63,472 nucleotides of DNA, filler included, from 6 parts of 6 records of this genome joined end to end with filler, not necessarily neighbours in it; one strand, 5' to 3'; positions 74-28,965 are shown, counted from the first letter of the whole stretch. Program-made: numbers and translations. The notes: generated by a model from the sequence alone, not told the origin.

Positions 74-1129
74 ATGAACGGTGATCACGTGACGGTGGAG
101 AAGACAAACGAAGCCTTCCGGTTTAACCCGGAGGAAGATTGCCAGCATGCGTTCCTGAAGGGTGACGTCGGCGGCCCTGCAGGTGCGCTTCTCAATATCT
201 ATCATGATAACTGGTTCGGCATCAGAAGCGCGGCTGCCGCCATGCCTGGCGATAAGCTTGTCATCAATCCGGAAACCATTTCACCAGACCACTTTGAGAG
301 CATCGCGAAGACCATAGCCAGCAGCGGCGCTTCGTTCGTTTGCTTTCAGGGTTTCTCAGAGCCGCTCGCGCAACTGGCGACCTATTTGAAAGCACACCTT
401 GGCAGTGCGCTGAAACTGTTTGCCGTCAGCCATGTAACCTCCACGCAGTTCCAGGCGCCATTTGAAATTCGCATGCAGGCAGCCCTTGTTCGTTTGCTGA
501 ACGAGGGAGTATTTGAGCGCATCGGGAGCGTGAAGCCCCACTTTCATGAGGTGGTGCCGCAAACCTGGCCAAAAACCTTGATTAATTTTTGCCCCACGAT
601 GCAGGGAATCTCGGCTTTGCCTGATGTTAGCCGTGTGTTTATCCCGGTCGAGAATCACTGGCGAAAGGGCCTTTATACCAACCTGATCGCGGCGCTCAGG
701 GCGTCAGAGGTATCAATTGTCCGCACAGTGAATGAACCTAAACATCTCGAGCTTATCGAGAGCTTAGAGAAAGTCTCCGTTACCGGTTTCCTCTCACCTG
801 AGCGAATGGTGGAGGAGATCAGCGCGGCGGCTGCGGTGATGAATGTGTCGCTGGCGGAATGCCAGCCCATGACCCAGCTTGAGGCCTTTGCGCTCGGCCG
901 GCCTTGCCTCACAGGGCCGCTTGGGCTTGAGGAGTTTGCTGATGATGAACTGATCAGGCTTTGCACCGTCGAGGGGCTCGATACCCCGCATGGGATCATC
1001 ATGAAACTGGAGGCTTTGCTAAGCCTCTGGCGGCGGGATACCATAGGCATGACCCAAATGATCGCAAACCATGTTTCGCACAGGCAAGCCCTGGCGCTTA
1101 CCCGTCTCAATGAATTCCTGGGGGGGTAA
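74..1129 (+). CDS. GT-B fold glycosyltransferase (GT4-like)
   Basis: C-terminal E-x7-E motif (SLAECQPMTQLEAFALGRPCL); GGAG before ATG at 74; first gene of the GT cluster. Confidence 0.75.
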   Translation: MNGDHVTVEKTNEAFRFNPEEDCQHAFLKGDVGGPAGALLNIYHDNWFGIRSAAAAMPGDKLVINPETISPDHFESIAKTIASSGASFVCFQGFSEPLAQLATYLKAHLGSALKLFAVSHVTSTQFQAPFEIRMQAALVRLLNEGVFERIGSVKPHFHEVVPQTWPKTLINFCPTMQGISALPDVSRVFIPVENHWRKGLYTNLIAALRASEVSIVRTVNEPKHLELIESLEKVSVTGFLSPERMVEEISAAAAVMNVSLAECQPMTQLEAFALGRPCLTGPLGLEEFADDELIRLCTVEGLDTPHGIIMKLEALLSLWRRDTIGMTQMIANHVSHRQALALTRLNEFLGG

Positions 1130-1137
1130 GGCAAGCT

Positions 1138-3588
1138 ATGGCACGCATCTGTTTTGTCACCAACGAGATTTACCCGCTGCACAAAGGTGGCATTGGGCGC
1201 ATGTTATATAATATTGCGGTTAAAAATGCCGAGAGTGCGCAGCCTGCGGATATTCACTTCCTCATGGTATGGCAGCCTGATGACGTGCAGGCAAATATCC
1301 GCATGGCACTCGCGGGGCTAGCCTCCATAGCTTTCTGCCCGCTCACAGCGGGCTCCTTTGGTGGCTGGGCAACCGAGTTTGAACAGAGCAATGCGCTCAA
1401 TTGGCACTATGGCCACGCGTATCGGCAATCGCTCATGCTCTATTGGGCGCTTGATGAATATGAGAAAGGCCTTGATGCGCCCTTTGATATTATCGAGTTT
1501 CCAGACTATGGCGGCTGGGCGCTCGCAACGCTTGAGGCGAAAGCAACGGGCATACGCTTCACGGGTGCGACAATCGCGGTGCGACTGCACTCTACAGCCG
1601 GGGTTATCGCCGCGCACCAGCCGTTCTATGAGAAGATTGGCCACTGGGCTGGCTGCATTGAAGATATGGAATATCAGTGCCTAGCCAAAGCCGACGTCAT
1701 CGTTGGTCATCTTGGAGGCATTATCGATTATAACCAGCAACATTACGGGTTTGATGATGCCTGGCGCGCTCGTTGTTACACCGAGTTCCCGCCCATTGAG
1801 CTGACGGTGGACGAAGCATCGCAACATGCTGGGCGGCGCTCAGGTGCGGACCCGGATTTCATCTTTTCGTCCCGGCTGCAACCGTTCAAACAGCCAGACC
1901 TGTTCATCAAGGCAGCCCTGAAGTTCCTGAGCGCAACACCGGCCTATAGCGGGCGCTTCCGTCTGATCTCCTACGGTTGGGATGATGCTTATATCGCGTG
2001 GCTTGAGAGCCTCATTCCGGCCCACAGGGCAGCGCAGGTGACGATTGAACGTGACCTCAGCGCGGGTGAGCGCATCAAGGCCATCCGCTCCGGCATTACC
2101 GTTATCCCGTCCAACTATGAAAGCCTGTGCCTTTTTGCGTATGAAGCTTCAAATCTTGGCAGCACAGTCATCCTGAACGATGCTTGCCTCGGGTTCGGGG
2201 AAAAGAGCAGGTGGGTGCACGGTGAGAATTGCCTGAAGTTTGATGGCAGCCTGGAAGGCCTTGTCACTGTATTGCGGGATGCCATAGACGCCCAATTGCC
2301 TGAGGTGGTCTCAGTGCAGACAACCACACCTTATTGGGACGCGGGTCTCGAGGCCTCTGCGCCCCCGACAGGGAAAGGGCAGGAGCTTACTCTGCTGCTG
2401 CACGGCTTCAAACGCCGCGAAGAGGTTTCCGGCAGCCTCAAGCGGCACAAAGAAGCGCAGGCGTCAAAGGGACCTGACCATCTTCTGCTGCTTTTGCCTG
2501 ATGCCTGGCGTGGCGAGGCGATGTTTGATGAGCGGGATGCGGATGTTCACTGGCTTGCAAGCGACGCGCCGTGGCCAGAAGATATCGCGGGCGCGGTGTC
2601 TCAGTTAAATGGGCTGATTGCCATCGCGGAGGCTGATACGCTGTTTGAACCACCCTATTGGGCGCGGGCGAGACAGGCGCTTGAGCATATTGATGTAGCG
2701 GCGTTTGCGAGCCACGCGCGGCTGAGACTGCCCGATGGCCGTACAGATGCAATTCGTACTTACGCGGGTGGTGCGCCTTCAGCGGCGGTTCTCTCGGCCG
2801 ATGCATTGCCGCCGGGCGCGGTATACCGGGCGGATGTGTTGCGTGAGCTGATGGCAGACGGCCTCGCTTTCACACCACATGAGAAATCGCGCTGGTACTC
2901 GCTGCTCGGGCGCACCATGGCGCTTGGCAAAATGGCTATAACGGTCGCGCCTTCGCCTGATATCAGCATCCCGGCAAACCGGTTGCGAGACAAAGGCGAT
3001 GCTATCATCGATAATGCCCTGCTGGAGCGCCACTTGGGGAAAGCGCTGGGGGCAAAGCCAGCCTTCCTGCCGGGCCTTGCATTGAAGCTGCTTGCGCCGC
3101 TTGCGGCGGGTGCACCGGAGATAGAGTTGAGCCAGGCGCTGCGGGGCGCCAAACAGCTTTGGCCTTTGGCTGGCACGCTAGACTGGAGGCCTGTTGAATA
3201 CCGCATGAAAGAGCGCGCGCTGCAGGTGCACCCGCGTGAGGGCGGGCATGTGATTGCCGCGTTACCTATTGGGCAAAAGGACCTGATCAGCGCGTTATCT
3301 GTAAGGCTTCGGCATTATGGCGATGGCAACCCTGGCGTTGATTTCCAGTTGCTGGCCTTTGAGGTGGAGCCAGACGCTGCACTTATGGAAAAGCTGGAAT
3401 GTAGCGCAGAAATAGAGGGTGTGATGGCAAGTGACTGGCAGAAAATCACACCGGGCGAGACCGTTACCCTGACCCTTGAAGGGTTAGCAGAGGGGAATTT
3501 TAACGTGTTCGCGATCACCGCCCGACCAAGCGACGGTGTGACCATCCATAAAGCGTGGACCTTTGTTGATAAGCTCTGGAGTCACTAA
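1138..3588 (+). CDS. Multidomain glycosyltransferase: GT4 domain, degenerate GT2-like middle, C-terminal DUF6212-like module
   Basis: N-terminal RICFVTNEIYP..GGIG, IEFPDYGG, SRLQPFKQPD, PSNYESLCLFAYEA; C-terminal LQVHP...AWT module shared with 15105-17204. Confidence 0.75.
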   Translation: MARICFVTNEIYPLHKGGIGRMLYNIAVKNAESAQPADIHFLMVWQPDDVQANIRMALAGLASIAFCPLTAGSFGGWATEFEQSNALNWHYGHAYRQSLMLYWALDEYEKGLDAPFDIIEFPDYGGWALATLEAKATGIRFTGATIAVRLHSTAGVIAAHQPFYEKIGHWAGCIEDMEYQCLAKADVIVGHLGGIIDYNQQHYGFDDAWRARCYTEFPPIELTVDEASQHAGRRSGADPDFIFSSRLQPFKQPDLFIKAALKFLSATPAYSGRFRLISYGWDDAYIAWLESLIPAHRAAQVTIERDLSAGERIKAIRSGITVIPSNYESLCLFAYEASNLGSTVILNDACLGFGEKSRWVHGENCLKFDGSLEGLVTVLRDAIDAQLPEVVSVQTTTPYWDAGLEASAPPTGKGQELTLLLHGFKRREEVSGSLKRHKEAQASKGPDHLLLLLPDAWRGEAMFDERDADVHWLASDAPWPEDIAGAVSQLNGLIAIAEADTLFEPPYWARARQALEHIDVAAFASHARLRLPDGRTDAIRTYAGGAPSAAVLSADALPPGAVYRADVLRELMADGLAFTPHEKSRWYSLLGRTMALGKMAITVAPSPDISIPANRLRDKGDAIIDNALLERHLGKALGAKPAFLPGLALKLLAPLAAGAPEIELSQALRGAKQLWPLAGTLDWRPVEYRMKERALQVHPREGGHVIAALPIGQKDLISALSVRLRHYGDGNPGVDFQLLAFEVEPDAALMEKLECSAEIEGVMASDWQKITPGETVTLTLEGLAEGNFNVFAITARPSDGVTIHKAWTFVDKLWSH

Positions 3589-5264
3589 GTCTTTGATATA
3601 GCAAGGATATGGTCGATATTCTGAGCCGCGCCGTCTTCTGAATAGTGCTGCTCTGCCGCCATTTTCGCCGCACTGCCAAGGGCTTCGCGAAGGCTGGGGT
3701 TTTCAACTAGCTCCGTGAGTGCTGCGCGCCACTCTTCCCAGTTTTTACACAACATACCGGTCTTGCTGTGTGTGACTGCATCAAGGAAACCTGCGGTGCC
3801 GCTCGCGATCGTTGGTACACCGAACATGGCGGCTTCCAGCCATTTAATCGCGCTTTTGCAATCATTAAAATGGTTTATTTCAAGGGGTGCGAGGTTGATA
3901 TCAGCAGATGCGAGGGCTTGCCAATAGTCGCCAAGCGCCCCCAACGGGCGGTGCCTAATCTGGCCAGAAAATGGCGTGAGAACAGCAGGCAGGTCCAGAT
4001 ACCCCATCAGCGTTAACCGGACACCCGGCTGGGCTTTCAGTAGCGGTGCGAGGCAATTTTCAGCAAAATCATCAAAGTCAGATTGCAGGGCGCGGGTGCC
4101 TGTACCGTAAAAAAGCTCAACGATATCAGTGTCTTTTAAAGTATTTCCGCGTGCCAATTCTTGCGCAGTTCGGTGTTGGCGCCCAAGAGCATTGGCATGA
4201 ATATGCACCGGCGTGCCGGGCAGCGCCTTGGATATCGCAGACTTGAGCGCCGATGTTGAGGTGATCACACCGTCGCATAATGCCATAGCAGCGAGATATA
4301 ACGGCGGCAGAACCTGAAGTTCGGCATACTCATCCTCGCTAAAATCAGCACCATAAGAGGCCTTCGGGCCGGGGAATACCACACTGTCAAACAGCAGGTC
4401 GTCTGTCTCGTAAAGCATTGGAATACCAGCGGCTTTTGTCGCTGCTATCGCGCTAAAAACAGCGGGAACAAGCGGCAAACGGTAGCAGATCACATGGCTG
4501 AATGACGGCAGCGCCGCTTCAAAAGCCGTCAGTTCCTGCCGCGAAAACACGGAGCTCTTAACACCAAGGCTCTGTAATTGCTCAGCTTTCTGCTCCACGC
4601 GGTAATGCCTGCATTGGGGAAGCGAGAGGTCCCCGATGATCGCCACATGTGGCGGGTCTGTAGGCAACTGTGTGGTCGGGTGTGGCGCTATTTGTGGCGC
4701 AGCCTTTGGGGCGGATATATGCGCGTAAAGGGCAGGCACCGTCGCCATGCGGTCAAGCGCCGCCGCCCGGTCGCCCGCTATCGCGTCCACCATTGCCTGT
4801 TTCTTCTCAAGCGAGAAAGCCTGCCGCACAGCCCGGACAAGAAGGTTGGTTTTGTCCTCACTGTCAGGCAAGGGCAATAGCAGGTCGAGCGCATGCTTCG
4901 GCTCCCCTTGTAGAAGCGCGCATTGCGCCTGGTCCAGCATCACGTCATCACGTGCGGGCAACAGCTCCAGGAGCCGCGCCGCGTCAAACACCGTGCCGGG
5001 CTCAAATAGAACGCCGTCCGGGAAGAATATTTCATAAGGTTTGTCTAAATCGGGCCGAGGAAACCGCGTTTGAAAGGCCGCATCAATATAAAGGCTGGCT
5101 GAAAGAGGGCCGAAAAACAACAGAGCCTCGCCCCCCGTGCCGGGGGATGCGTGAAAGCTCAACACGCCGTCTTTCATCTCAAGTTCAGTTTGCCAAGCAG
5201 ATACTGCGGCAAAGTTTCCTGACAGACAGGCGGTTTTCTTTGGAAAAACGCGGAAGAACGACAT
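3585..5264 (-). CDS. GT4-like glycosyltransferase
   Basis: DLSLPQCRHYRVEQK, YETDDLLF and ADINLAPLE.NHFNDCKSAIKWLEAAMFGVPTIAS motifs of polysaccharide GT-B enzymes; start uncertain. Confidence 0.75.
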   Translation of the reverse strand: MSFFRVFPKKTACLSGNFAAVSAWQTELEMKDGVLSFHASPGTGGEALLFFGPLSASLYIDAAFQTRFPRPDLDKPYEIFFPDGVLFEPGTVFDAARLLELLPARDDVMLDQAQCALLQGEPKHALDLLLPLPDSEDKTNLLVRAVRQAFSLEKKQAMVDAIAGDRAAALDRMATVPALYAHISAPKAAPQIAPHPTTQLPTDPPHVAIIGDLSLPQCRHYRVEQKAEQLQSLGVKSSVFSRQELTAFEAALPSFSHVICYRLPLVPAVFSAIAATKAAGIPMLYETDDLLFDSVVFPGPKASYGADFSEDEYAELQVLPPLYLAAMALCDGVITSTSALKSAISKALPGTPVHIHANALGRQHRTAQELARGNTLKDTDIVELFYGTGTRALQSDFDDFAENCLAPLLKAQPGVRLTLMGYLDLPAVLTPFSGQIRHRPLGALGDYWQALASADINLAPLEINHFNDCKSAIKWLEAAMFGVPTIASGTAGFLDAVTHSKTGMLCKNWEEWRAALTELVENPSLREALGSAAKMAAEQHYSEDGAAQNIDHILAISKT

Positions 5265-5428
5265 AAAAGAGCCCAAAATCTAGGTGGTTGTGTTACCGAC
5301 CTTAAATGTTAATTTGATGCAAATCCATTTTCATGACAAAGCGAACATGAATGCTAAGGCAGTACCGTGTTCGCGCCGCCAGTTGCGGGCTTTGTTCCGT
5401 ACCACGGCGAAGGGTTTAGGATATTCAT

Positions 5429-8400
5429 ATGAGTAGCAGCGTGTCCGGGAAAGGCACCAACATCATCGAGCGAATTGAACAGTCCGGGCTTTTTCTTGCT
5501 GACTGGTATAGCGAGCGTTATGGCCTTGACGGCACAAAGCCTGCCAAAGCGCTGAAGCATTATGTAGAAAAGGGCGCTGCCCTTGGCTATCGCCCCAACC
5601 CGTATTTTGATGCGCCCTATTATGCTACTCAGTCTGGCGTTAAGGACCCGTGCGAAGCGCTCGTGCATTTTGCGGATGGGGGCTGGCGTGAGGGGTTGGA
5701 CCCTTCCAAGGAATTTCTGGTCACACCTTATCTGGAAGCGAACCCGGATATTGCCAGCGCAGGGCTGAGCCCGTTGGCACATTTTCTCAGCCATGGCCGG
5801 CATGAAGGCCGCAAGGCTGTCTCAAAGTCGTTTGTTGATCCATGGGCGCCACCGCCGGGGGCACTGGCGCTTAAGGACGCGACGGTCACCAAGCGGCATA
5901 AAAGCTTAGCCAAATCTGTCACTGAGACCGGTTTGTTTGATGCTGCGTTTTACTGCGCCACATATCATACCCACATGGATGCAGAAGGCATGGCTGACCC
6001 CGCGCTGCATTACACGCTGTTTGGTGAAAAGCACGGGTTTAAGCCCAATCTCTATTTTGACCCAACCTACTACAAGCGCATGGCTGGGCTTGGAAAATCA
6101 GGCTCGCCTGCGCTTCTGGATTATGCGAACAAGGGGTGGAAAAAGGGCCTTAACCCCTCCGCCCGGTTCAGCGGTGTTTTGTACCGGGAAGCTTATGCAG
6201 ACCGTTTTGGCAGGCAAAATGAACCCCTCGCGCATTATTTGAAAGACGGTGAGGCCATGGGCTTCGCGCGGTTTGATGTGCAACTGGCAACCGCAACCGG
6301 GAACGCAAGTGAGGACAAAGCCACCGTCGCCCAAATGGTTGAGGTTGCCAAAACCGGCCTGTTTGATGCCGCCTGGTACACCCAAAAATCAGAGGACCTG
6401 AAGGGCGAGGATATCACGCCGATAGAGCATTATCTTTCTACCGGTATGAAGGAAGGGCGTTGGCCGAACGAGTATTTTGACGACCGCTGGTACGGCACTT
6501 GTTACGGCGCGGAAATAGGAAAAGAACTACCACTGCTTCATTATGCCCGAGCGGGCTGCCTTATGGGCAAGTGGCCTTCGAAAACCTTTTCGCCAGAGCT
6601 GTACTTCCTTATGAACAAGGACATCAGTGAAGAGCAGGATAACCCGCTTTTGCATTTCCTTGAGTGCAAGCGCGGTGGTGTGCCACGCTCCTGGCCGAAC
6701 CCTGCCTATCTTGGCAAAGAGGGCCATGCCTATCTGGTGATGAACGAGCAGGAGCGCGCACTTGCCCGCGAGGCAATCGTGGGCACCGGGTTGTTTGACC
6801 CCCACTGGTATGCGCAGGCCTACGCGCAAGACCTGATAGGCGGCGCGGATTATGTTGAGCATTTCCTGATTTTTGGTACTGGCCTGAAGTGCCGCCCGAA
6901 CAGATATTTCGATACGCAGTGGTATGCGGATGAATACGCCGGCGATATTGGTGATTGCCATCCGCTTGTGTTTTACGCGGAGCACGGTTGGAAACTTGGG
7001 CACAAACCAAGCCGTGAGTTTGATGAAGCATCTTACCTTGAAGCTTATCCTGAGCTTGAGGATTTTGGCGGCAGCATGCTGGCGCACTATGTGCAGTTGG
7101 GCCGGGCGGAAGGCCGCACAGTGCCTGCACCTGTTGAGACCAGAGGGCAATCTGGCGCAGTGTTTCGTGCCCACGGCGGCAAGCGCATCCTTGGGCGCGG
7201 CATGCAAGGCATTACTGCGTTTGACCGCGTGCGCTTAACCCCGGCGGGGAAAGAATATGATCCAGCGCAGTTGAACATCCACTGGGTGATCCCGGACTTC
7301 GCGGCGGGCGGGGGCGGGCATATGACCATTTTCCGCATGATCAGTTTTTTGGAGCGGCAGGGCCACAAGGTCACCATCTGGGTCAATGACCCAGACCAGC
7401 ATAAAAGACCCGAAGACGCGCGAGAGACCATCAATAAACATTTCCAGTTTATTGCGGCAGACGTCCGGTTTGTGGGCAGCAATTTTGCAGAACAGGCAGC
7501 GGGGGATGCAATCGTAGCGACAGACTGTTGGTCGGTCTGGCCCGTGATGGCAGCGGCAAACTTCCGTGAGCGGTTTTATTTTGTGCAGGATTTCGAGCCG
7601 TCCTTCTTTGCCATGGGCGGCAACTATCTGGCCGCAGAGCTGACCTACAAGCAGGAGCTGTTTTGCTTGTGCGCAAGCCCGTGGCTTGCTCAAAAACTCA
7701 GCCGGGATTATGGCCGCCGCACCGCGCATTTCTATCTGGCCGCAGACCAGCGGCTTTATTTCCCTGCCAAGCCTGAGGGCGAGAAACAGGCGAAGGAAAA
7801 TACGGTTCCCCGCATTGCCTTTTACTCGCGGATCGCGACTGACCGCCGCGCGGTAGAGCTGGGCCTGTTGGCACTTGAGCTGCTGGCACGCGAAGGTGTG
7901 TCTTTCCATGTGGACTTCTTTGGTAACGATGTGCCTTTTGGGGATGCGCCGTTTGCCTTCACGGACCACGGGGTTGCGTCAACGGCTGATCTGGCCGCGC
8001 TTTTCAACAAAGCTGACATCGGTGTGGTTTTTTCTGCCACCAACTATTCGCTGGTGCCGCAGGAGATGATGGCGTGCGGTTTGCCTATTGTGGAGCTGGA
8101 CGGTGAGAATACCCGCGCGATTTATGACGAGGATATCGTTGCGTGGGCCAAGCCCGACCCTTATGCGATCGCGACAGAAATCAAGGCATTGCTGAGGGAC
8201 GAGAAACGCAAGAAAGCGCAGGCTGATGCCGCGCTCAAATGGGTTTCGGGTTTCTCCTGGAAACAGGCGGCGGAGACAGTTGAAGCTGCAATCAAGGATG
8301 CTGTGACGGAAGCGGCAAAAACGACCGGTGCCAAACCTGGGCCAAGGCAAAAGGAAGCCACGCCCCCAAAAGCGTCTGTGGTGATCCCGACCTATAATGC

Positions 8401-9295: not shown

Positions 9296-9445
9296 GGTGG
9301 CACGCGCCGCTCTCACTAGCTTGCAATATATATTTGCACCTTGTGGTGCACCGGCGCTATATGAAGTGCGCGTTATCGTTGCCTTGGGGGAGTATGCAGT
9401 GCTGGGCCATGATGATGCGCGGATAAGTCGAGACCGGAGCATTTC

Positions 9446-10483: not shown

Positions 10484-10531
10484 CCCATTTTGGTCTTTAG
10501 GGGCGCGCGGCGCCGGATGATAGGTAGACAC

Positions 10532-11761: not shown

Positions 11762-11915
11762 CCAGGGGTCAGCGCGAAAGGTGGCAATGCGCCGCACGTA
11801 TTGTTGATGTTCGACACGCAAGAAAGCGTGTGCTATCGACGGTTTCTGGTAAATTGGGACTAGTTTTTTTTGGCTGAGATGGCAAAGAGCGCCCAGATTG
11901 AATTGGAAGTGATGG

Positions 11916-15082: not shown

Positions 15083-15104
15083 TCCGGGAGGATATTGGGG
15101 CGGC

Positions 15105-19938: not shown

Positions 19939-20712
19939 CTATAGCGTGAAATTAAGCCCCAACTTCTTGCGGGCATCTTCCCTGAACCGGCTTTCAAATT
20001 CATCTTTGGCCGAGTGCGCCTGCTTCTGGAACATGGATTTGCGTTTGCCCAATTTGTCGAATGGCTCGTCGATGAACACCGCGATACGGCGGATGGTAAC
20101 GAAAGGCTTTTTGATCAGGTCTTCATACCACACGGTGTGATAGGACTTGTTCAGAACGGTCAGGCTCAGTTCCGCATCACTATTGTGTTTGATGCAGGAC
20201 ATGACGATACGCTCTATAGCGTCAAAGTCATACTCGGGCATTTCGCCTTTAGCTTCATGAAATGAAGCCCACTGCTGATTATGGTGCGCGATATAGTGAG
20301 AGATAGCCTGTGCGATGATGTTCCTGCGTTTGATCCAGATGATAGAGCTGCCACCCTCAAATGCGTCCAGCAGGCCGAAGCGGTGCAGCATATCAAGCTG
20401 GATACAGCCTATTTTGGCGCCCCAGTGTACGGTTTTGCAGTCCCGACGCATGAAGCGCACATAATCTTCAAAACCGTGCAGGCTGTGCTGATCACTCATC
20501 TTCTGTACGTTAACGGCGTTGAAAATCTCATGCCGCATGGAAACGCTCGGGATGCGCTTCATCAGGTCAACCAGATAGTTGGAGCCAGAGCGGTTGCCGA
20601 ACAGCACAAAAACGCCCTTGCCCGGTAGTGTGCCGGTGATGCGCGTGCGGGATCTGTCTCCGCCATAATAGGCGAGGATATCACTCTCGTGCTGGTGCTG
20701 TTTTGGTTCCAT
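19939..20712 (-). CDS. Stf0-family sulfotransferase
   Basis: RSGSNYL, RRNIIAQAISHYIA...QW, YDFDAI, VWYEDL. Confidence 0.75.
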   Translation of the reverse strand: MEPKQHQHESDILAYYGGDRSRTRITGTLPGKGVFVLFGNRSGSNYLVDLMKRIPSVSMRHEIFNAVNVQKMSDQHSLHGFEDYVRFMRRDCKTVHWGAKIGCIQLDMLHRFGLLDAFEGGSSIIWIKRRNIIAQAISHYIAHHNQQWASFHEAKGEMPEYDFDAIERIVMSCIKHNSDAELSLTVLNKSYHTVWYEDLIKKPFVTIRRIAVFIDEPFDKLGKRKSMFQKQAHSAKDEFESRFREDARKKLGLNFTL

Positions 20713-20796
20713 CAAACTCACGATCTAACTGAGGGTTGAGCCTTTTAAGCCGAGGTTATGGCCAAGTTCAAGATGCATGTGGGGTTAGGGGCACTT

Positions 20797-23481
20797 TTAT
20801 TGCGCTGTCTGGTGATAGAAATCTGGTGACAAAAGCTTTAAAGGCCCTTGGTTTTCAAGCGTGCGGACCAGTTCTTTATGCTCTGCCTTTGAGAGCGGTT
20901 TCAGCGGGTTGGTGAGCAGAAATTCGTTCACCCGCGCGGGTTCTTTCATCCATGCTACAGGCAGCACATGGCCAAAGCCTGCATCACGCACGCGGTCGGC
21001 CATCGCGCCTAAGTCAAACACCACAGGCGGTATGTTGAGCCGGAACGCGAGCGTGAGCGCGTAGTTATAGGTCTCGGGCCAGATGGAGAAGAAAGCCAGC
21101 ATGTCCGGGCTATAGCCACGCAGCATTTCAGCGCATTCTGCATCACCCCGGTATTTACCCATGATCGTGAGTTTCTCGATACTGCCAGAGCCAGTGTCTG
21201 AATATCCGAACAGGCGAAAGGCGATCTTGAGGCCCCGTGCCCAAGCATCACGCGCGCAATTTTCCATAATGGCGCGGCCTTTGTGTGGCCCAAGCGCCCC
21301 CACAAACGCCAGCCTCAGATCGCGGCTTTTCCCCGGCTTGCCTGCCTTTGGCTTGACGGGTGAGCCGAGGTCTGTGTGTTCATGGTGTGGCACCGCTTTG
21401 CATATATCAGCGCGGAGGAATGCGTTGGCGCGGTTTGCGGCGTTCTGGGACGGGGCAAAACACCCCGCACTTGCGCGGATAAATTCCCGGTATTCATTCT
21501 GATAGGTTTCGATGTCGACCCAGCCGTTTACTGGCGGGTGAGCGCCAAGGCAATTGCGGCAGCCATCCACATCCGGTTCACCGCAATAGTCACCGGCGGG
21601 TGTTACAAACTGCCCATGTGGGCATATGGGCGCATAGTCGTGGAAAGTGAAATAGTAGGGCAGGCCGGATTGTTTAATGAGCTTGAGCACCTGTGCACGT
21701 GCCTGCGGCAGGAAGGCCACAAGGCTGTGCACGTGTACGAGTTTAGGGCTGAGGATAGAGATCAACTCCTGAATGAGCCCGGCATCTGCTGTAACGTGAA
21801 GTTCTTCAAGGTTGGGCAGGAAGAAGCCGTCGCCACCATCAAAGCTTACATGTTCGGATTTATGCTCAAGCGAGCGCATGGTAACGACGCCAACGCCTTC
21901 GGCACTAAGCACAGTCCGCAGGTCTTCGATGTTTTTGGAGATGCCGCCACCCCAGTCATGCGAGATGAAAAGGGCTGTCTCGCCCATCGCCCGCTTGAGG
22001 CGCATGGCGTCCAGCCGGGCGCGGGCATGTCGGCCCGCGTCGTGGGCAATATAGCGGTGCACATCACCCACATAGCCGGGATGCTTTTTCAAAACTGCCT
22101 GCAGGCCCTTCTGTTGTGAGAGAGGGGCGTCAGCCGCAAAAGAAACCTCGCCCCGGTGTTTCACAAACACATCAAAGGCCAGCACGTTGCGCCAGCCTGC
22201 ACCGGCCACGCGCACACAGAAATCGTTTTCCTCGCCATAGCCTTTTGCAAAGGCAGCTTCGTCGAACAGGCCGACCTCATCCAGTGCTTTACGGCGAATG
22301 TAGAAGCAAAATCCAACGCCTGTGGGCACGTCCGTGAGCTGGCCTTTGTTAGCGGCATAGGCTGCTTCGTTTAGGCTGGTGCCGGAGCACTCAATCTCGA
22401 AATTATTGTTCTTGAGCGTTTCCGGATAGCTGCAGATTGTCGCGTTATTGGAAAGGGGTGTGATTGTGGCGATGTCTGCGTGGGTATCTGCATGCGCAAG
22501 CAGGCGGTCAAGCCAGTCGCCGTAAACCTCGGTATCCGCATTCAAAAGCACAACATCGCGCTCGGCATTTAAGGCCATACCGCGATTGACGGTGCCAACA
22601 AACCCGAGGTTTTCATCGTTACGAAGCAGGGTGAAAAGCCCCTTTGCTGCTAGTCGCTCCAGTTTTGCAGACAGCTCAGGCTCGGGGCTGTAATCGTCAA
22701 TCACAATCAACTCAGCGGCGTGTTCGGTACCCGCACTTAGTACTGAATAGAGGCAGCGTAGCGTGTCACCATAACCCCGGTATACCGGCACAATGATATC
22801 AACTGTTGCGGCACCACCGTCCGGGTCAAGCGGCTTAACGTCTAGCCATTCTTTATCTGTGGGGGCAGTCGCCTCTTGTGCTTTCCTCAGGCCAAGCCGG
22901 TTCAGGCGTATGGTGCCTTCCAGGCCACTGTCCAGCAGGTCAAGGATGGGATTTACAGCTTCATTGCGGCGATTGCCTATCTGGCGGTCAAACTCTTTAA
23001 TATCAAACAGGAGCGATGGCCTGCGGCCATCTCGCCACCCGCGTTCCATAAAATGTTGCAACGGGTCTGTGCCCGGCGGCAGGGGCGGCTTCAGCGCTGC
23101 ATAATAGGTGGCGTCAAAATAGCTTGAAGCCTCAATCCGCTCTCGTTCCCCTTGCGCATTCGCGGGGGGCGGAGCAACTGTATCAGACGTGCCAGGCAGC
23201 GGCCGTTGCTCTTTTTTTCCTTGGGTCAGATAATGCACAAAAGGGTTGAGGTCGGCCTTTTTGATGTCCGGGTAGGCGTTCAGGTAGGCCTTCACCGAAA
23301 ACCAGGGCGCGGGGTCAAGGCCTTCGCGCCAGCCGGTTTTCATAAAATGTTTGAAGGCAGACTCGCCGCTTTTTGCCACATCCGGGCACTGCACGAGATA
23401 GAAAGCTTCATCGAAGTTTTGCCGTGCAACCGCAACCTCATCCCGCCGTCTTCGCCATAAAGATAATTTCTTGCGCATCAT
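20797..23481 (-). CDS. Bifunctional GT2 + GT4 (ExpE7-like) glycosyltransferase with N-terminal FD..Y/PL.HY repeats
   Basis: VDIIVPVYRG, NLGFVGTVN, GYGEENDFC (GT2); FHDYAPICP, SIWPETYNYAL (GT4); N-terminal FDEAFYL..PDV...HFMKTGWREGLDP. Confidence 0.85.
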   Translation of the reverse strand: MMRKKLSLWRRRRDEVAVARQNFDEAFYLVQCPDVAKSGESAFKHFMKTGWREGLDPAPWFSVKAYLNAYPDIKKADLNPFVHYLTQGKKEQRPLPGTSDTVAPPPANAQGERERIEASSYFDATYYAALKPPLPPGTDPLQHFMERGWRDGRRPSLLFDIKEFDRQIGNRRNEAVNPILDLLDSGLEGTIRLNRLGLRKAQEATAPTDKEWLDVKPLDPDGGAATVDIIVPVYRGYGDTLRCLYSVLSAGTEHAAELIVIDDYSPEPELSAKLERLAAKGLFTLLRNDENLGFVGTVNRGMALNAERDVVLLNADTEVYGDWLDRLLAHADTHADIATITPLSNNATICSYPETLKNNNFEIECSGTSLNEAAYAANKGQLTDVPTGVGFCFYIRRKALDEVGLFDEAAFAKGYGEENDFCVRVAGAGWRNVLAFDVFVKHRGEVSFAADAPLSQQKGLQAVLKKHPGYVGDVHRYIAHDAGRHARARLDAMRLKRAMGETALFISHDWGGGISKNIEDLRTVLSAEGVGVVTMRSLEHKSEHVSFDGGDGFFLPNLEELHVTADAGLIQELISILSPKLVHVHSLVAFLPQARAQVLKLIKQSGLPYYFTFHDYAPICPHGQFVTPAGDYCGEPDVDGCRNCLGAHPPVNGWVDIETYQNEYREFIRASAGCFAPSQNAANRANAFLRADICKAVPHHEHTDLGSPVKPKAGKPGKSRDLRLAFVGALGPHKGRAIMENCARDAWARGLKIAFRLFGYSDTGSGSIEKLTIMGKYRGDAECAEMLRGYSPDMLAFFSIWPETYNYALTLAFRLNIPPVVFDLGAMADRVRDAGFGHVLPVAWMKEPARVNEFLLTNPLKPLSKAEHKELVRTLENQGPLKLLSPDFYHQTAQ

Positions 23482-23655
23482 CTATGCTTTCAAGGCTGGT
23501 GTCCGGCCGCGGTAACGGCTTATGATCACTATTGATTTTTTGGTTATGCGCGAGGCTTTTATCATGGCATTTCTTATCCGCCAACTGGTCCGGCAAAGTC
23601 AAGCGGGCGTCTGTTGGTCATATGCGCCGCACGTGGGCCAAAAGGTGTGTGCACT

Positions 23656-24735
23656 GTGCTGAAACGCTTGAATGTTTATATTGATCAGTCAGACCCCGCC
23701 GCAGCAGTGCGGCTTTCTCATGCGCTGCGATATGAGAAGTCCGTTAATCTGGTCCCGGCCTCCGGCGGGGGGATGCCTGAGGGTGAGCTTTATGAATTTT
23801 TATATGACCATGCCGTAGATGTTGTTTTTGCGCCATCAGGCGCGGGGGAGATTCCGCACTACCTGAAAGAGCAGGGATATAACCCAAAAATACTGGCGCC
23901 CAGCCGGGATGCGCTTACGGCGGTAAGAAGCTTGGTATCAGGCTCCAATACGGGGCAGGGCGATCACGACTACCTGGTGGATTGTTACACGGATTTTTCA
24001 GGTGACCTGCGATACCGGCTTGTTCAACTTGTCCAACAGGCCGAGGCTGCCCTGCGGGTAACGCCTGTGTTGAAGGCGCCGTATGAAGTTGAGATGCTCG
24101 CGGATGTCCTTAATGTCCGCTACAAGCCTAGGGGGGGCTGGTATTTCCGGGCAACTAAAGTGGATGGCGGTGAGCTTCGGCTTGCCAGCTTAAACCTGAG
24201 TGGGCTCGATGGCGCCTCACTCAGTCGTTTGCGAGGAGCGAACTTCCCGGCACTTATGCTGTTTGAGGTCATGGGCCATGATATTGGTTTTTTGCTGCAA
24301 AAAGACCTGCCATGCTCAGCGTTATTTGATGAGGCTGGTGTGCATGTGAGCGCATCCCCGGAGCACGACAGGGTGTTTTTTGACCTTGATGACACCCTTA
24401 TTATTCATGGGCAGGTGAACCCGGAAGCAATCAGCTTCCTTCAGCGGTGCAGAGAGAACAAAAAACCGGTCACGCTTATCACACGGCATTACCGGGAACC
24501 CGGGATCACGTTGGCGGAGTTTGGTATTGATCCCGCCCTGTTTTCGCAGATGGTCTGGATCACAGACGGTAGCAGCAAGGCGTCTCATATCCCGCCAGAT
24601 GCGCGGGCAATTTTTGTTGATGATGCGTATAAAGAAAGGCTGGATGTTGCTGCCAATTCGGCTTGCGCGGTTTTTGCTCCTGATGCGATCCCTGCGCTGC
24701 AGGGTGGGATAATGCAGGAATTGTTCCTGCGCTAG
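23656..24735 (+). CDS. Degenerate ATP-grasp-like domain fused to a HAD-family domain
   Basis: HAD motifs VFFDLDDTL, LITRH, SKA, FVDD; YLVDCYTD..G.LRY and GANFP resemble ATP-grasp C-terminal parts; start uncertain. Confidence 0.55.
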   Translation: MLKRLNVYIDQSDPAAAVRLSHALRYEKSVNLVPASGGGMPEGELYEFLYDHAVDVVFAPSGAGEIPHYLKEQGYNPKILAPSRDALTAVRSLVSGSNTGQGDHDYLVDCYTDFSGDLRYRLVQLVQQAEAALRVTPVLKAPYEVEMLADVLNVRYKPRGGWYFRATKVDGGELRLASLNLSGLDGASLSRLRGANFPALMLFEVMGHDIGFLLQKDLPCSALFDEAGVHVSASPEHDRVFFDLDDTLIIHGQVNPEAISFLQRCRENKKPVTLITRHYREPGITLAEFGIDPALFSQMVWITDGSSKASHIPPDARAIFVDDAYKERLDVAANSACAVFAPDAIPALQGGIMQELFLR

Positions 24736-24741: not shown

Positions 24742-25401
24742 CTACAGATATTGATCGTCAGGGATGCGATTACGTATTTTTTTGGCAGGTACGCCGTAAT
24801 AAAGCCCGCCATCTTCCAGATCACTGCACACGAAAGACTGCCCGCCTACGACCACGCTGTTCCCTATGGTTATGTCCTGCCGTACGGTAGCGCCGATACC
24901 GAGGTGGCTGGCTCTGCCCAAGCGAACGTTGCCGCCGGTGGTGGCTCTGGAGCCTGTACTCGCGAAACTCTCTATAACATTGTCATGCTCAATGATCGAG
25001 CCTGTGTTGATGAGTGCATGACGGCCGATGCGGGTGCCTGTGTTCACGATTGTGCCGGGCATAAGCACCGCGCCGGGTTCTATTACGGCACTGCTGGATA
25101 CGATCGCACTTTCGTGGGTAACGCTTACCCATTTAAAGCTGGGTAACATCTGCTCAATAGTGTTGGCGATGTCGATGCGGTAGCTGTTGTTGCCCACGCC
25201 GATTACGCCACACAGGTCACCGAACTGGTCCATGAGATCCGGGAGTATGCTCAAGGGGCCAAGCACGCTCAGGTTGCCACATGCGCTTCCCTTGGGGTTA
25301 TGGTCACAAACATGGCCAAGAAGGGTGAAGCTACCTTTGGGCGCGCAATCCTGCACCACTGCGGCATGTCGGCCCGACCCTATGATCACCAGATGTTTCA
25401 C
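24742..25401 (-). CDS. NeuD/PglD/VioB-family sugar acetyltransferase (hexapeptide repeat)
   Basis: IIGSGRHAAVV, GVGNN..R, INTGSIIEHDN, YGVPAK. Confidence 0.85.
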   Translation of the reverse strand: MKHLVIIGSGRHAAVVQDCAPKGSFTLLGHVCDHNPKGSACGNLSVLGPLSILPDLMDQFGDLCGVIGVGNNSYRIDIANTIEQMLPSFKWVSVTHESAIVSSSAVIEPGAVLMPGTIVNTGTRIGRHALINTGSIIEHDNVIESFASTGSRATTGGNVRLGRASHLGIGATVRQDITIGNSVVVGGQSFVCSDLEDGGLYYGVPAKKIRNRIPDDQYL

Positions 25402-25437
25402 ATATTTTCCCCAACTGGCGGTTTGATATGATGGCGG

Positions 25438-27291
25438 CTATTTCCTTGCGCCCTCGGGCACCATCTCTTCAAATTGCCAGACCTTCTTATCGCTCGCCTG
25501 TATATCTTCATGGTGACGATAAATGTAATTTGCGATTTCACCAAATTCCCAGGAATCTTCGTCATCTTCCACGAAGAAAGCCTTCTCGGGGTCATTGGAA
25601 AGGATATTCCTGCTGATCTGCACCCTGAGGCCTGGGTCATCCACAAGCCGCACCACGGCTCTCACATATTCGTCCACATTATGGGTGGTAAGCCATTCTG
25701 GCTGAGCCAAATGCGCAACCAATGACGCGTCATTGGCTGTGTGGGCTTCATCCCCTGTCATGTTAACGATTGGCAGGCCTTGGAGCGCCGCGTCAACGAT
25801 GCCGTTTGTTGCGCCAAAGGGGAAGGAGCTGAGGAAAATATCACACTGATTCAGGTCCTCAATATATTGGTTGTAGCTTTTGCGCGGTAGAACCTTGTCG
25901 TGCGGCATAATGCTGCCAAACCGGCGTACAAGTGCATGATGTAATGCGCCGGAAGCATTAGGGAAAAACCAAAATTCAACCGGCTTTGTCGCGAGGTCAC
26001 GAATGCGGCGACAGGCATTCAGGAATGTTGGTGTAATCTTACGAGACCACGCAGGGATGGCGATACGCACCACGTCAGGGTCAAGGCGAATGTCCGGCGC
26101 AACATCGGCCGCGTCGTGCCTGTGTGTGAAATATGGTTTGGTTGGCCGCAGCATGATCTTTTCGGAGAAAGTATTCTCGTTCTGCATTAATTCATCCGGC
26201 AGAATGACATAATCCATTTTATCGGAACGTGTTGTTGCCGGGTGGCCGATGGTCATGATCTGGATTGGTGCAAGCCGTAGGTTTGACAAGAGGATGCTGG
26301 AGAACCGCATGCCAACACTTGGCAGGTATATGACATCAGGTTGGTGTGCGATGATTTTATTGATAATCTTTAATGCTTCTGGGTGCTTGAATGAAAAAGT
26401 TTCTACCTCATGCGCCAGCGATGCCAGTTCCTCATTGGCTTTGGTGTCCGCCATCATCAAGACAGTGTCAAAATGCTTTTTGAGCGAGCGAATAGACGGA
26501 CCATAACACCTGTGCATGGCATGCGCCGAGTTATACAGTTCCGCGAAGATAAGCAGCTTGGGTCGTTTTTTGACAGGCCTGGTAGCGGGAAGTTTCCGGT
26601 CCGCGATTTTTTGATTAGTCGCCCACCTGCGGACGTGAGCGTTCATGCAATATTTAAAGTCGTGTTTATGGGGCGCCTCCGCATAGGAGCAGCCCATGTA
26701 AGGCGGCCCCATAGCAAAAACAGTGAGCGAGTTTGCTTTTACGTTTTTCCAATGATCCGACATTGAGAGAAGTTTCCCTCGAATTATCTCAGCCCTTTGG
26801 GAGTAAATCATCTGCTCGGATAGAAAGCCGATCACCACAGGCAAGCTGGCGGCCGGGTCTAACTTCAGGAGAGCGTTAAACAAGGTTTCGGTCATTGAAT
26901 TGATCGAGATACCCGCGAAAAGTTTGTAGAGCTCCGAAATTTTGTAGGTCTTCTGGCCGTTGCGCTCGGTACCAAAAACGGTCGTGAGGTGATCAGTGCC
27001 CCGGTATCCGCTGACTTCGAAAGCCTGCGCCAATGCCCTCTTATATTTGTTCAGGGTTAACATCATGCTTGATGTGAGCTGATAGTCAGGGTCCATCAAT
27101 AGAGTTGTCACAGCGCTGGCTATGCGCGTCGCCGTTCTCTCTCCCACAACATCAAACATGCCTTGATCGCCACCAAAGTTGTGTTTGCCAGCTTCAATGA
27201 TGCCCAGAAGTTTCGATAGCGGGTCAACCACTTCGGCATATGTGCGTTTGCGCACGGCCGTTTCAATTTCCTGTAACAGTTTATTGGGCAC
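25438..27291 (-). CDS. HMW1C/NGT-family (GT41) cytoplasmic protein N-glycosyltransferase
   Basis: YMGCSYA..PHKH..K, SAHAMHR, YLPSVGM, NLRLAPIQIMTIGHPATT.S, FPFGATNGIVD, PEWL....VDEYV.AV.L; 617 aa with no long TPR array. Confidence 0.88.
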   Translation of the reverse strand: MPNKLLQEIETAVRKRTYAEVVDPLSKLLGIIEAGKHNFGGDQGMFDVVGERTATRIASAVTTLLMDPDYQLTSSMMLTLNKYKRALAQAFEVSGYRGTDHLTTVFGTERNGQKTYKISELYKLFAGISINSMTETLFNALLKLDPAASLPVVIGFLSEQMIYSQRAEIIRGKLLSMSDHWKNVKANSLTVFAMGPPYMGCSYAEAPHKHDFKYCMNAHVRRWATNQKIADRKLPATRPVKKRPKLLIFAELYNSAHAMHRCYGPSIRSLKKHFDTVLMMADTKANEELASLAHEVETFSFKHPEALKIINKIIAHQPDVIYLPSVGMRFSSILLSNLRLAPIQIMTIGHPATTRSDKMDYVILPDELMQNENTFSEKIMLRPTKPYFTHRHDAADVAPDIRLDPDVVRIAIPAWSRKITPTFLNACRRIRDLATKPVEFWFFPNASGALHHALVRRFGSIMPHDKVLPRKSYNQYIEDLNQCDIFLSSFPFGATNGIVDAALQGLPIVNMTGDEAHTANDASLVAHLAQPEWLTTHNVDEYVRAVVRLVDDPGLRVQISRNILSNDPEKAFFVEDDEDSWEFGEIANYIYRHHEDIQASDKKVWQFEEMVPEGARK

Positions 27292-27374: not shown

Positions 27375-28514
27375 CTAGCTTTCAAGAACCTTGCTGACCA
27401 CGGAAGCGATCTCTTGCAGGTCGCTCTCGGTGAGAAAAGCGTGGAAGGGCAAGCCAATGAGTCTGTTCTTCAGGTCATCAATGTGTGGCAGGAGCGTACC
27501 GTCATCGCCCCGGATGATCTCAGCAGACTGAAAAGCGATATGTTCGTTCAAAGGAGGGAAATACCACTTTCTGGTCTGGATACGGGCGTCGCTCAGCGCG
27601 CGTTCCAGTGCGGCCGCCTTGCCTGGCGCATCAATTAGCAGAGTGCCGGGGACATAGTCTTTTGTGAGCGGATGGAAATGCTCCTCACCCAGAAGAGCAA
27701 TGTACTGGTCGAGTACCTGTTTGCGCCGCGCTTGCACTTCAGGGAATCGTGTAATCTGGGCCAGACCGTAGGCCGCCAGAACCTCGGCCAGTTTTGCATT
27801 TGTGCCAACTTCACGGCTCGTGCCATCGCAAAATGCGAAGTTGGATAGGTTGCGTGCCCGCTCTACCAACTGATCTGAAGCAACAAGCAGGCCTCCCTCA
27901 CCAATGCCGAAGGGCTTGGTGGCATGTAGGCTAAAGCAGATTGGAATATCAGGGTGTATCAACTGGTTACCAAGGGCGGCTGCAGCATCGATAAAAACGC
28001 GAATGCCGGTATCGCGTTGAAACTCCGCCCAGGTGTCCAGTTCAATCGGGTAGCCATAGATGGCAACCGGCAGCACGGCGTCAATCTGGTACTTTTCCGA
28101 AATCCGTTTTGCGATTTCGGGTGTCAGACACCAGTTGTCTGAGTCGACATCACAGAAAACCGGGGTGTGCCCGGTTATTTCGATTGAAGCAGCAGTTGCC
28201 GAGAAAGTGAGCGCCGGTGTTAGTATGCGCGCGGGCTTTTTCAAGCCGGACGCGCGCAACATCAGCTCAAGTGCTGTGGTGGCAGACGAAAAAGTCGCGA
28301 CATTGGTTCTCTCGGCGCGCGTGGCTGCCAGGGCAGGCGATGCTTCTTTGAACATGCTGGCCATGGTGTGTTCAAATTCACGCACCAGCGGACCAAAATT
28401 GGAATACCAACGGTTCTGATCTACTCGTTTCAGATAGGGCAGTACATCCTCCGCAGAAGGCAAGTCTGGCACAAGGCACTTAATTTTCCAGTTGTCCTGC
28501 ACGCAGAACTCCAT
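27375..28514 (-). CDS. DegT/DnrJ/VioA-family PLP sugar aminotransferase
   Basis: WYSNFGPL, SSATTAL, IDAAAALG, FSLHATKPFGIGEGG, GTNAKLAE. Confidence 0.9.
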   Translation of the reverse strand: MEFCVQDNWKIKCLVPDLPSAEDVLPYLKRVDQNRWYSNFGPLVREFEHTMASMFKEASPALAATRAERTNVATFSSATTALELMLRASGLKKPARILTPALTFSATAASIEITGHTPVFCDVDSDNWCLTPEIAKRISEKYQIDAVLPVAIYGYPIELDTWAEFQRDTGIRVFIDAAAALGNQLIHPDIPICFSLHATKPFGIGEGGLLVASDQLVERARNLSNFAFCDGTSREVGTNAKLAEVLAAYGLAQITRFPEVQARRKQVLDQYIALLGEEHFHPLTKDYVPGTLLIDAPGKAAALERALSDARIQTRKWYFPPLNEHIAFQSAEIIRGDDGTLLPHIDDLKNRLIGLPFHAFLTESDLQEIASVVSKVLES

Positions 28515-28953
28515 CTGTTGAGTATTGTCTGAATTTCATCATTGATCTGTTCGGCGTATATCTTGCTCTCAAAGCGCACGCAACATCAATTGAGCAGCAT
28601 ATATGGTCTTTCCGACGCTTATAACTGCCCGTTAAACCTAAAAGAAGTGCATTTTTTAAACTGACCACGCTTTGGCCTAACGCAAGGTGTGGGTCCTTCC
28701 AAAGCAACAGGAACGTGGGATTCGGCTGCCAGTTTGTGTGTGATTATGTCCCTTGAAGCGAAAAAGTGTGTAATTTCTTGTTTTTTTTGGATTGTGTTCC
28801 GAAATTTCTGCCATTAGTATGGCCGCAGTTGAAAAGGCAACGTGCAGAGAAGTGCGTAGTTGACAACATGTAATTATTTTAGTTAACGAGGGACGAAGGG
28901 CATGCTCAGGTGCCTGACAAACAAATTCTCTTGGTGCTTTTAGGAGGAACACT

Positions 28954-28965
28954 ATGGCTACGAAT
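28954..28965 (+). CDS. First four codons (MATN) of an unidentified gene cut by the contig end
   Basis: AGGAGG at 28942-28947, 6 nt before ATG; preceded by a ~440-nt AT-rich divergent intergenic region. Confidence 0.5.

Follow-up and report, generated by a model that had tools for sequence, protein, structure and literature searches.

The DNA analysed here, referred to as the window, comprises 63,472 nucleotides, and this report concerns the gene cluster at its positions 1-28965, which encodes an enzyme of the HMW1C/N-glycosyltransferase (NGT) family together with a type I secretion system (T1SS), other glycosyltransferases (GTs) and sulfotransferases. This part of the window has a GC content of 51-58%, forms one Kordiimonas-like contig, with closest homologs labelled Kordiimonas, and is 100% identical to the complete 4.18-Mb genome G001, with the match ending exactly at position 28965. 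Positions 28966-63472 are mostly 61-65% GC and gave, against G001, only two matches of ~45 bp and stretches at 66-74% identity. The window is a concatenation, and the part beyond position 28965 comes from another organism. A low-GC island at positions 1-28965 was ruled out, since G001 is ~55% GC all round the cluster and the high-GC remainder belongs to a different organism. By sequence comparison, we regard the cluster as the probable centre of a cell-surface locus, ~60-70 kb in size and conserved in Kordiimonadaceae, that is a variant of the rhizobial exp/wg cluster for galactoglucan (exopolysaccharide II, EPS II), and not as a wholly new glycosylation system.

Genes were called by Pfam and NCBIfam profile searches of the 16 open reading frames (ORFs) in positions 1-28965. 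These searches recovered the gene content described in the initial annotation, namely the HMW1C/NGT enzyme, a PrtD/PrtE secretion pair, seven other GT genes and amino-sugar genes. The seven GT genes gave nine GT domain matches, two of them below the Pfam cut-offs. On the plus strand, a GT4 with Glyco_trans_4_3 and Glycos_transf_1 domains (10490-11761; Pfam, 177.8 bits), the positional counterpart of WgcA/ExpC, is followed by the PrtD-type ABC permease/ATPase of the T1SS (11916-13673; TIGR01842, 507.8 bits against a cut-off of 510.15; WgdA/ExpD1 counterpart) and its HlyD-family adaptor (13670-15082; TIGR01843, 288.9 bits against a cut-off of 208.65; WgdB/ExpD2 counterpart). The start of the HlyD gene overlaps the end of the PrtD gene, and PrtD is the sole strong PrtD-type match in G001. 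Next come a 712-aa DUF6212 protein (15066-17204; Pfam, 119.4 bits), which is the positional counterpart of the first Sinorhizobium meliloti wga-operon gene, and a 936-aa protein (17104-19914) that Pfam resolves into a GT2 domain, corresponding to the long S. meliloti GT after DUF6212, an unannotated middle part and a C-terminal sulfotransferase. The T1SS parts present are thus the ABC permease/ATPase, the adaptor and an RTX-repeat substrate described below; no TolC-type outer-membrane component was found in the cluster, and no genome-wide search for one was made.

The NGT gene (617 aa; 25438-27291, minus strand; NF049992, 3Q3E) is flanked on the same strand by genes for a DegT/DnrJ-family sugar aminotransferase (27375-28514; Pfam, 192.9 bits; TIGR04427, E 3.5e-42) and a PglD-like sugar N-acetyltransferase of the NeuD/PglB/VioB family (24742-25401; TIGR03570, 159.8 bits against a cut-off of 160.8; Pfam PglD_N and Hexapep). 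Three sulfotransferase domains had been announced for the cluster, of which two are firm, the C-terminus of the 936-aa protein and an Stf0-like protein of 260 aa (19939-20721, minus strand; Pfam Sulfotransfer_3, 37.7 bits, and Sulphotransf, 35 bits). The third, a 345-aa ORF (9446-10483, plus strand), is a probable sulfotransferase for which the evidence is a lead and not proof (Pfam Sulfotransfer_1, E 0.23; protein atlas features 0.95 and TM 0.74 to Sulfotransfer_1 clusters). The sulfotransferase fused to the long GT2 in the window is a stand-alone gene in most relatives.

The remaining GT genes include two GT4-type enzymes, of 352 aa (71-1129, plus strand; Pfam Glyco_trans_1_4, 34 bits) and of 563 aa with an unannotated N-terminal 330 aa (3585-5276, minus strand; Pfam Glyco_trans_1_4, 39.9 bits). 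Between them lies an 816-aa protein (1138-3588, plus strand) with a weak GT4 domain (Glycos_transf_1, 23.3 bits) and a DUF6212-like C-terminal module (23 bits), both under cut-off. In profile searches, a 1288-aa multidomain GT (5429-9295, plus strand) has an N-terminal 640 aa without annotation, a WsaF-like GT4 domain and a GT2 domain; it is 47-52% identical in relatives, where it is convergent with the T1SS operon. An 894-aa two-domain GT (GT2 and GT4-type by Pfam; 20797-23481, minus strand) and a 373-aa protein with a weak HAD-like Pfam match (23614-24735, plus strand) complete the cluster. A promoter and terminator scan did not rise above chance (7 promoter-like sites against 13.4 expected and 25 terminator-like sites against 24.4).

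In G001, the 28.9-kb cluster is bracketed by a perfect 2,338-bp direct repeat (C1:3057581-3059918 and 3088854-3091221, corresponding to L004:17663-20000 and L006:8936-11273). The final 30 bases of the first copy form positions 1-30 of the window and the initial 30 bases of the second copy form positions 28936-28965, and the contig broke in the assembly because its ends fall within this perfect repeat. Within the repeat lies a gene for an acidic RTX protein of 732 aa, in which Pfam recognises 15 HemolysinCabind stretches and nothing else; therefore, identical RTX genes stand on both sides of the cluster. The first ends ~120 bp before base 1 of the window, and the second has a start codon, in G001, that corresponds to position 28954 of the window, 440 bp past the DegT gene. 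Recombination between the repeat copies could lead to loss or amplification of the 28.9-kb segment.

The initial annotation reported no Wzx/Wzy, priming transferase or ligase, and Wzx, Wzy, ABC-2, priming transferase and ligase families indeed have no match among the 16 ORFs, but this lack reflects where the repeat-bounded contig ends, and a Kps export set lies just beyond. The upstream flank in G001 carries a LicD-like gene, cysD, cysN fused to adenylyl-sulfate (APS) kinase (cysNC), kpsS (E 9e-70), kpsF, kpsM (E 9e-28), an ABC ATPase gene, kpsE (E 6e-91) and a Poly_export gene, and farther upstream kdsA, kdsB/kpsU and a two-domain kpsC. Together these genes, all outside the window, make up a complete ABC-transporter-dependent capsule (Kps) system with genes for a linker of 3-deoxy-D-manno-oct-2-ulosonic acid (Kdo). 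The proposal of a pathway free of lipid carriers and of Wzm/Wzt is therefore not supported, and export genes of this kind in the flanks are what the initial annotation had itself named as a refutation. No second large GT block that could serve as Kps 'region 2' was seen within the 80 kb annotated in G001. The downstream flank contains rmlA, rmlD, rmlB and rmlC, a GT2 gene and manC. Two further RTX ORFs (357 and about 760-805 aa) lie just upstream of kdsA, kdsB and kpsC (L072:7793-8866 and 9162-11579; G001 C1:3027793-3031579), so the super-locus holds four RTX genes.

In all five Kordiimonas genomes checked, kpsS/kpsC lie 15-30 kb from the NGT/T1SS block. The distant species G002 keeps the same order, with kpsC, cysD, cysNC, kpsS, F, T, E and D followed by GT genes, the GT4, RTX and the T1SS operon.

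Proteins of the window map in order onto a single segment of S. meliloti pSymB (984,629-988,424 in strain 1021). The matches include PrtD (35%, 307 bits), HlyD (28%, 164 bits), the long GT2 (31%, 145 bits), RmlA (57%) and the GT4 at 10490-11761 (38% over residues 15-413 of 423, 275 bits). The same segment also holds RTX repeats, DUF6212 and a GT2_580-like gene (35% over part of its length), and the annotated pSymB record gives the order calcium-binding protein, HlyD / GT4, DUF6212, glycosyltransferase, two pyruvyl transferases, glycoside hydrolase, rfbACBD. Published exp/wg names were assigned to individual genes by position. NGT, DegT, acetyltransferase and sulfotransferase have no match in the pSymB segment.

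The S. meliloti exp/wg cluster is described as five operons (wga, wgcA, wggR, wgd and wge), and the repeat unit of its polymer is a Glc-Gal disaccharide (PMC3233446). The calcium-binding protein ExpE1 is secreted, for which the PrtD/PrtE-like ExpD1/ExpD2 are reported to be needed, and mutants in these genes are blocked in EPS II (PMC1403797). The Kordiimonas core, consisting of the GT4, RTX, PrtD, HlyD, DUF6212, long GT2, GT2 and rml genes, is therefore homologous to the exp/wg genes of pSymB, and the T1SS pair, secreted calcium-binding protein, WgcA-like GT4, DUF6212 and long GT2 families occur together in one Kordiimonas locus. As to other exp/wg traits, rmlA, D, B and C lie downstream, pyruvyl transferase gave only a partial match of 24.7 bits upstream, and no MarR-family regulator was seen among the ORFs scanned. 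The system had been put forward as new; its core turns out to be related to a cluster whose product is a free polysaccharide, and by analogy the Kordiimonas product would be a secreted free polysaccharide as well.

In both clusters, GT genes without Wzx/Wzy surround a T1SS pair of the PrtD/HlyD type and a gene for a secreted RTX-type protein that binds calcium. In contrast to the rhizobial cluster, the Kordiimonas locus has two or three sulfotransferases, more multidomain GTs, the cassette of DegT, NGT and acetyltransferase, RTX proteins of much greater size (732-1257 aa, compared with 219 aa) and an adjoining complete Kps set with CysDNC. It shares with the group 2 (Kps, ABC-transporter-dependent) capsule loci of E. 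coli and Neisseria the presence of KpsM, ABC ATPase, KpsE, Poly_export, KpsS, KpsC, KpsF, KdsA and KdsB beside a variable GT region, but in Kordiimonas that region holds an RTX gene, a T1SS, NGT and sulfotransferases, with genes for 3'-phosphoadenosine-5'-phosphosulfate (PAPS) and a presumed export of the product by Kps. A further parallel is the S-layer protein RsaA of Caulobacter, an RTX-type surface protein whose T1SS is encoded beside surface-glycan genes (DegT-type aminotransferase, acetyltransferase) and which binds that glycan non-covalently; the Kordiimonas RTX protein lacks a recognised S-layer domain.

The DUF6212 gene is always followed by the long GT2 gene. A canonical DUF6212 gene (from locus L099) matches 105 plasmid records, 69 of them from Sinorhizobium, and it is only through this copy that pSymB was reached, as tblastn of the Kordiimonas protein against plasmids gave no match. 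The Kordiimonas form is internally duplicated, with the QTH.., ET.H and YGWCRW motifs each occurring twice. It exceeds the S. meliloti protein in length, its N-terminus is coiled-coil-like and YGWCRW closes each of its two repeated modules; the genes compared are at positions 15066-17204 of the window and L102:16432-17904. The DUF6212 profile had no matches among PDB sequences at E up to 1, a protein atlas queried with DUF6212 returned DUF6212 clusters only, and a literature search by family name found no paper that mentions it. Among 401 genomes sampled from the phylum, DUF6212 occurs in five other alphaproteobacterial families, always adjoining a homolog of the long GT2. Its neighbours there include GT4, rmlA and pyruvyl-transferase-like genes and, in L095, a small RTX protein or, in L099, a PrtD/HlyD pair.

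We analyzed the conservation of the locus in samples of genomes, and 'not found' holds for the genomes searched; ORFs in related loci were called by a simple greedy script, which may miss genes (e.g. HlyD in G069). Among 61 loci with an NGT alignment, a PrtD homolog of at least 200 bits is present in 14 and DUF6212 in 19. A co-directional run of RTX, PrtD, HlyD, DUF6212, GT2, DegT and NGT, usually with a stand-alone sulfotransferase next, is shared by 12 loci; the large GT, GT2 and rmlA genes of relatives are convergent with this run. A DegT-like gene is in the same locus as NGT in 47 of the 61 cases (the other 14 include several contigs shorter than 8 kb), the acetyltransferase recurs in 19 NGT loci, and rmlA is often near.

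The order was sampled with 201 genomes. NGT is found in 29 and DUF6212 in 37 of the 45 genomes of family f1, with 27 genomes having both, 2 having NGT only, 10 having DUF6212 only (several of them 100% complete) and 6 having neither; the 156 genomes of the nine other families contain no NGT and no DUF6212. Where both genes are present, they lie within ~10 kb on one contig in 21 genomes, 160 kb apart in one and on separate contigs in five. Seven of the ten genomes with DUF6212 only were examined, and all seven lack NGT and DegT in the 20 kb around DUF6212. These seven genomes keep the core: DUF6212 is followed by the long GT2 in all of them, with PrtD adjoining in six, HlyD in five and an RTX-motif ORF in five.

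In G093, the GT2 and sulfotransferase genes directly adjoin, in contrast to L028. From this pair and the loci without NGT it follows that DegT-NGT is a two-gene cassette inserted between GT2 and sulfotransferase, and in the Kordiimonadaceae locus this cassette is optional. Since the other enzymes persist without the supposed primer, the system is not, as had been suggested, NGT-primed.

The window NGT matches the NGTferase model NF049992 over positions 61-598 of 614 (E 3.7e-91, 306.6 bits, under the equivalog cut-off of 1000 bits) and ApNGT (3Q3E, E 2e-69; 8P0O, E 8.6e-64). Functional residues described for ApNGT (PMC10466321) were located through the alignment with ApNGT, in which chain numbers run 11 ahead of the native ones (with this offset, every named residue is recovered), and were compared across 60 NGT homologs. 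The UDP-contact residues given in that study are K441, H495, Y501, N521 and D525, and those proposed to read the +2 Ser/Thr of N-X-S/T are D215, M218 and Y222 (PMC10466321). The window NGT keeps K441, Y501, N521 and D525 (present in 60, 57, 59 and 60 of the 60 homologs) as well as M218 and Y222, and all kept residues occur in 57-60 of the homologs. At the H495 position it has Arg (His in none of the 60), and at the Q469 position Ala (Gln in none of the 60). In the Kordiimonadales clade the latter position is Ala, Gly or Ser, the same sort of change as in the engineered high-activity variant Q469A.

The nucleotide-binding core thus appears to be kept, with acceptor-reading and donor-pocket residues changed. 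The window NGT is probably an active GT41 enzyme, for which this residue pattern allows neither N-X-S/T specificity nor a UDP-glucose donor to be assumed. Because NGT is paired with an aminotransferase and an acetyltransferase, its donor is probably not UDP-glucose; the company of DegT, acetyltransferase and rmlA fits a donor that would be of the dTDP-4-amino-4,6-dideoxyhexose type.

HMW1C, ApNGT and EtpC share with the window enzyme full-length homology and a gene that adjoins genes for large proteins leaving the cytoplasm unfolded. The acceptor genes of HMW1 and EtpA adjoin their enzyme gene, which is not so for all family members; here a candidate acceptor gene lies near NGT in G001 (the second RTX copy, past the DegT gene) and directly adjoins NGT in L051 and L054 (RTX). 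In contrast to the type V adhesins, the candidate acceptors are T1SS-secreted RTX proteins in these loci and flagellins elsewhere. The known targets of the HMW1C family are summarised as type V proteins (PMC4550697).

To look for acceptors outside the order, we scanned 139 ORFs within 4 kb of NGT in 29 non-Kordiimonadales loci. Among specific Pfam families, those met most often were Flagellin_N (5), Flagellin_C (4), the TPR group (up to 6) and AMP-binding, Hexapep, GFO/IDH/MocA and Sulfotransfer_3 (4 each), the last despite a phmmer search that found no sulfotransferase homologs outside Kordiimonadales. Among the 25 best families, counting those with at least two members, none is Wzx, Wzy, ABC-2 export, priming transferase, GT2 or GT4. 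The distance between flagellin genes and NGT is 0.8-4.2 kb in L044, L055 and L056, which look like flagellin glycosylation islands that would use an HMW1C-family enzyme. These three loci (NGT at about 10001-11800) come from metagenome-assembled genomes (MAGs) of Gemmatimonadaceae, Pseudomonadales and Kangiellaceae, and TPR, AMP-binding and acyltransferase genes stand alongside. An autotransporter gene is near NGT in L068. Large neighbours in L036 and L064 proved to be UvrA-like and UvrD-like proteins.

In a marine gammaproteobacterium (L051:5178-16757), genes for an RTX protein (1325 aa), NGT, ABC, HlyD and a TolC-like outer membrane protein (OEP) follow one another in a compact operon with no aminotransferase and no other GT, so that this locus is the clearest putative case of an NGT that serves a T1SS substrate alone. 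A Novosphingobium MAG (L054) combines RTX (1535 aa), NGT and DegT. In a quick maximum-likelihood tree of the 60 homologs, L051 and L054 group together with an SH-aLRT support of 100, separate from the Kordiimonadales clade of 27 rows (also 100), so the RTX association is found in two distinct clades; as kin share labels, it counts as two observations, not eighteen. Two short contigs labelled as Verrucomicrobiota MAGs (L016, Spartobacteria, and L030, Terrimicrobiaceae) have NGT genes nested inside the Kordiimonadales clade, a placement that suggests mis-binning or recent transfer.

Flagellins, RTX proteins and autotransporters are all exported unfolded, as suits substrates of a protein glycosyltransferase in the cytoplasm. 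ApNGT expressed in E. coli glycosylated GND(S/T) sites within RTX repeats (PMC6318927), and the RTX glycoproteins SwmA and oscillin are known from an RTX review that names no enzyme for them and lacks the word 'glycosyltransferase' (PMC3034196). Among the papers listed on HMW1C with type I secretion, RTX or flagellin, mostly judged by title, no title describes a natural NGT acting on a T1SS substrate or flagellin.

Taken together, we regard it as fairly probable that the locus is of the exp/wg type, with its GTs and sulfotransferases making a sulfated polymer, its T1SS secreting an ExpE1-like RTX protein and the adjoining Kps machinery probably exporting the polymer. The multidomain GTs and sulfotransferases would build a sulfated surface polysaccharide with deoxy or amino sugars that is not protein-linked, and this polymer would most likely leave through Kps on a Kdo-lipid primer. 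The PrtD/HlyD T1SS would secrete the acidic RTX protein, which may bind calcium outside the cell and take part in making or organising the polymer, like ExpE1 in the case of EPS II. The DegT-NGT-acetyltransferase cassette would add one more decoration.

As to the acceptor of this cassette, the RTX protein may receive a sugar from the NGT, probably an amino sugar and at a site that may differ from N-X-S/T. The claim in the initial annotation that NGT acts on a T1SS substrate is retained in this form, as a hypothesis, given the RTX genes that flank the cluster and the NGT genes beside RTX/T1SS in the separate clade of L051 and L054. We tentatively place the RTX protein first, glycosylated in the cytoplasm before T1SS export; the polysaccharide is a plausible acceptor that we hold with more reserve, and another exported protein seems improbable.

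Several observations speak against an action of NGT on the RTX protein. Its 732 aa contain 8 N-X-S/T sites, a number matched by 443 of 2000 shuffles, which gives no signal of sequon enrichment, and the RTX proteins of the locus (z 0.9-2.2) are not set apart from other RTX proteins of G001 (z -1.9 to 2.1). The D215 position is Pro in the window NGT and in 24 of the 26 loci L009-L034, and Asp in only 6 of the 60 homologs. NGT and the RTX/T1SS operon are 160 kb apart in G018, and G047 has no T1SS near NGT. Finally, the tight pairing with an aminotransferase also fits an ordinary sugar addition to polysaccharide.

A rival reading does without any protein glycosylation: the NGT-like enzyme, DegT and acetyltransferase would attach an amino sugar to the polysaccharide, as a residue or a side branch, and leave the RTX protein unmodified. 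The DegT-like gene alongside NGT in 47 of 61 loci, the position of the cassette among polysaccharide GT genes, the lack of sequon enrichment and the changes at ApNGT D215, Q469 and H495 are consistent with it. However, every characterised HMW1C-family enzyme is described as modifying a secreted protein (PMC4550697), flagellin is the commonest specific family near NGT outside Kordiimonadales, with no polysaccharide export, GT2 or GT4 family among the 25 best, and L051 combines RTX, NGT and T1SS with no other GT. We consider this reading unlikely, if worth keeping in view. It is possible, though we doubt it, that DegT-NGT is a portable cytoplasmic cassette that puts an amino sugar on proteins exported unfolded by whatever route (RTX proteins, flagellins and autotransporters) without requiring N-X-S/T; the Kordiimonas cassette would modify the ExpE1-like RTX protein before T1SS export, and the glycoprotein would then organise the sulfated capsule.

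The other uncertain part of the exp/wg reading with Kps export is the route by which the polymer leaves the cell. Kps export is a step that we infer for this polymer, and the translational coupling of the T1SS genes to GT genes is left without explanation, likewise in S. meliloti. Moreover, no Kps match at E 1e-5 was found in the 33-kb S. meliloti segments examined, and exp-type clusters can therefore work without an adjoining Kps set. All three points weigh against this reading, and the last of them favours one in which Kps serves a separate capsule, and polymerisation and export of the exp-type polymer follow some other route that depends on the T1SS and the RTX protein, as assumed for S. 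meliloti EPS II. That separation is rather hard to reconcile with the synteny of Kps and the block in five of five Kordiimonas genomes, with the CysDNC genes standing among the Kps genes when the sulfotransferases are in the GT block, and with the lack of another large GT block in the 80 kb annotated in G001, and we think it distinctly unlikely.

The full model of the initial annotation, in which NGT primes Asn residues of a T1SS substrate in the cytoplasm, the GTs and sulfotransferases extend the glycan and the glycoprotein leaves by the T1SS without a lipid carrier, draws on the co-directional, tightly packed RTX, T1SS, GT2, DegT, NGT and sulfotransferase genes of the typical Kordiimonas operon, on the RTX genes flanking the cluster and on the existence of RTX glycoproteins (SwmA, oscillin; PMC3034196), but it is very improbable given that the same T1SS/DUF6212/GT2/sulfotransferase operon occurs without NGT (10 of 45 f1 genomes have DUF6212 without NGT), that the homologous S. 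meliloti GTs make a free polysaccharide and that a complete Kps set lies in the flank. Two general considerations also count against it. GTs with two domains and a length of 890-1290 aa are typically polymerases, and an unfolded T1SS substrate that bears a long sulfated chain would be difficult to thread through the channel.

The Kordiimonas loci couple the exp/wg core to a recognisable Kps exporter and exist in natural NGT-plus and NGT-minus forms. Through them, the question of why EPS II of S. meliloti needs a T1SS and ExpE1, and the role of the first wga gene (DUF6212), become testable, and these open questions can be addressed in culturable, non-pathogenic marine bacteria. For the HMW1C family, a wider range of targets and an amino-sugar donor are suggested by the RTX-NGT-T1SS operon of L051 and by the homologs linked to flagellin genes. 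If NGT acts on polysaccharide alone, the locus would be an ordinary, though elaborate, capsule or EPS cluster. If the portable cassette is real, the HMW1C family would gain its first targets outside type V and its first donor other than a hexose, and an enzyme would be at hand for the long-known RTX glycoproteins.

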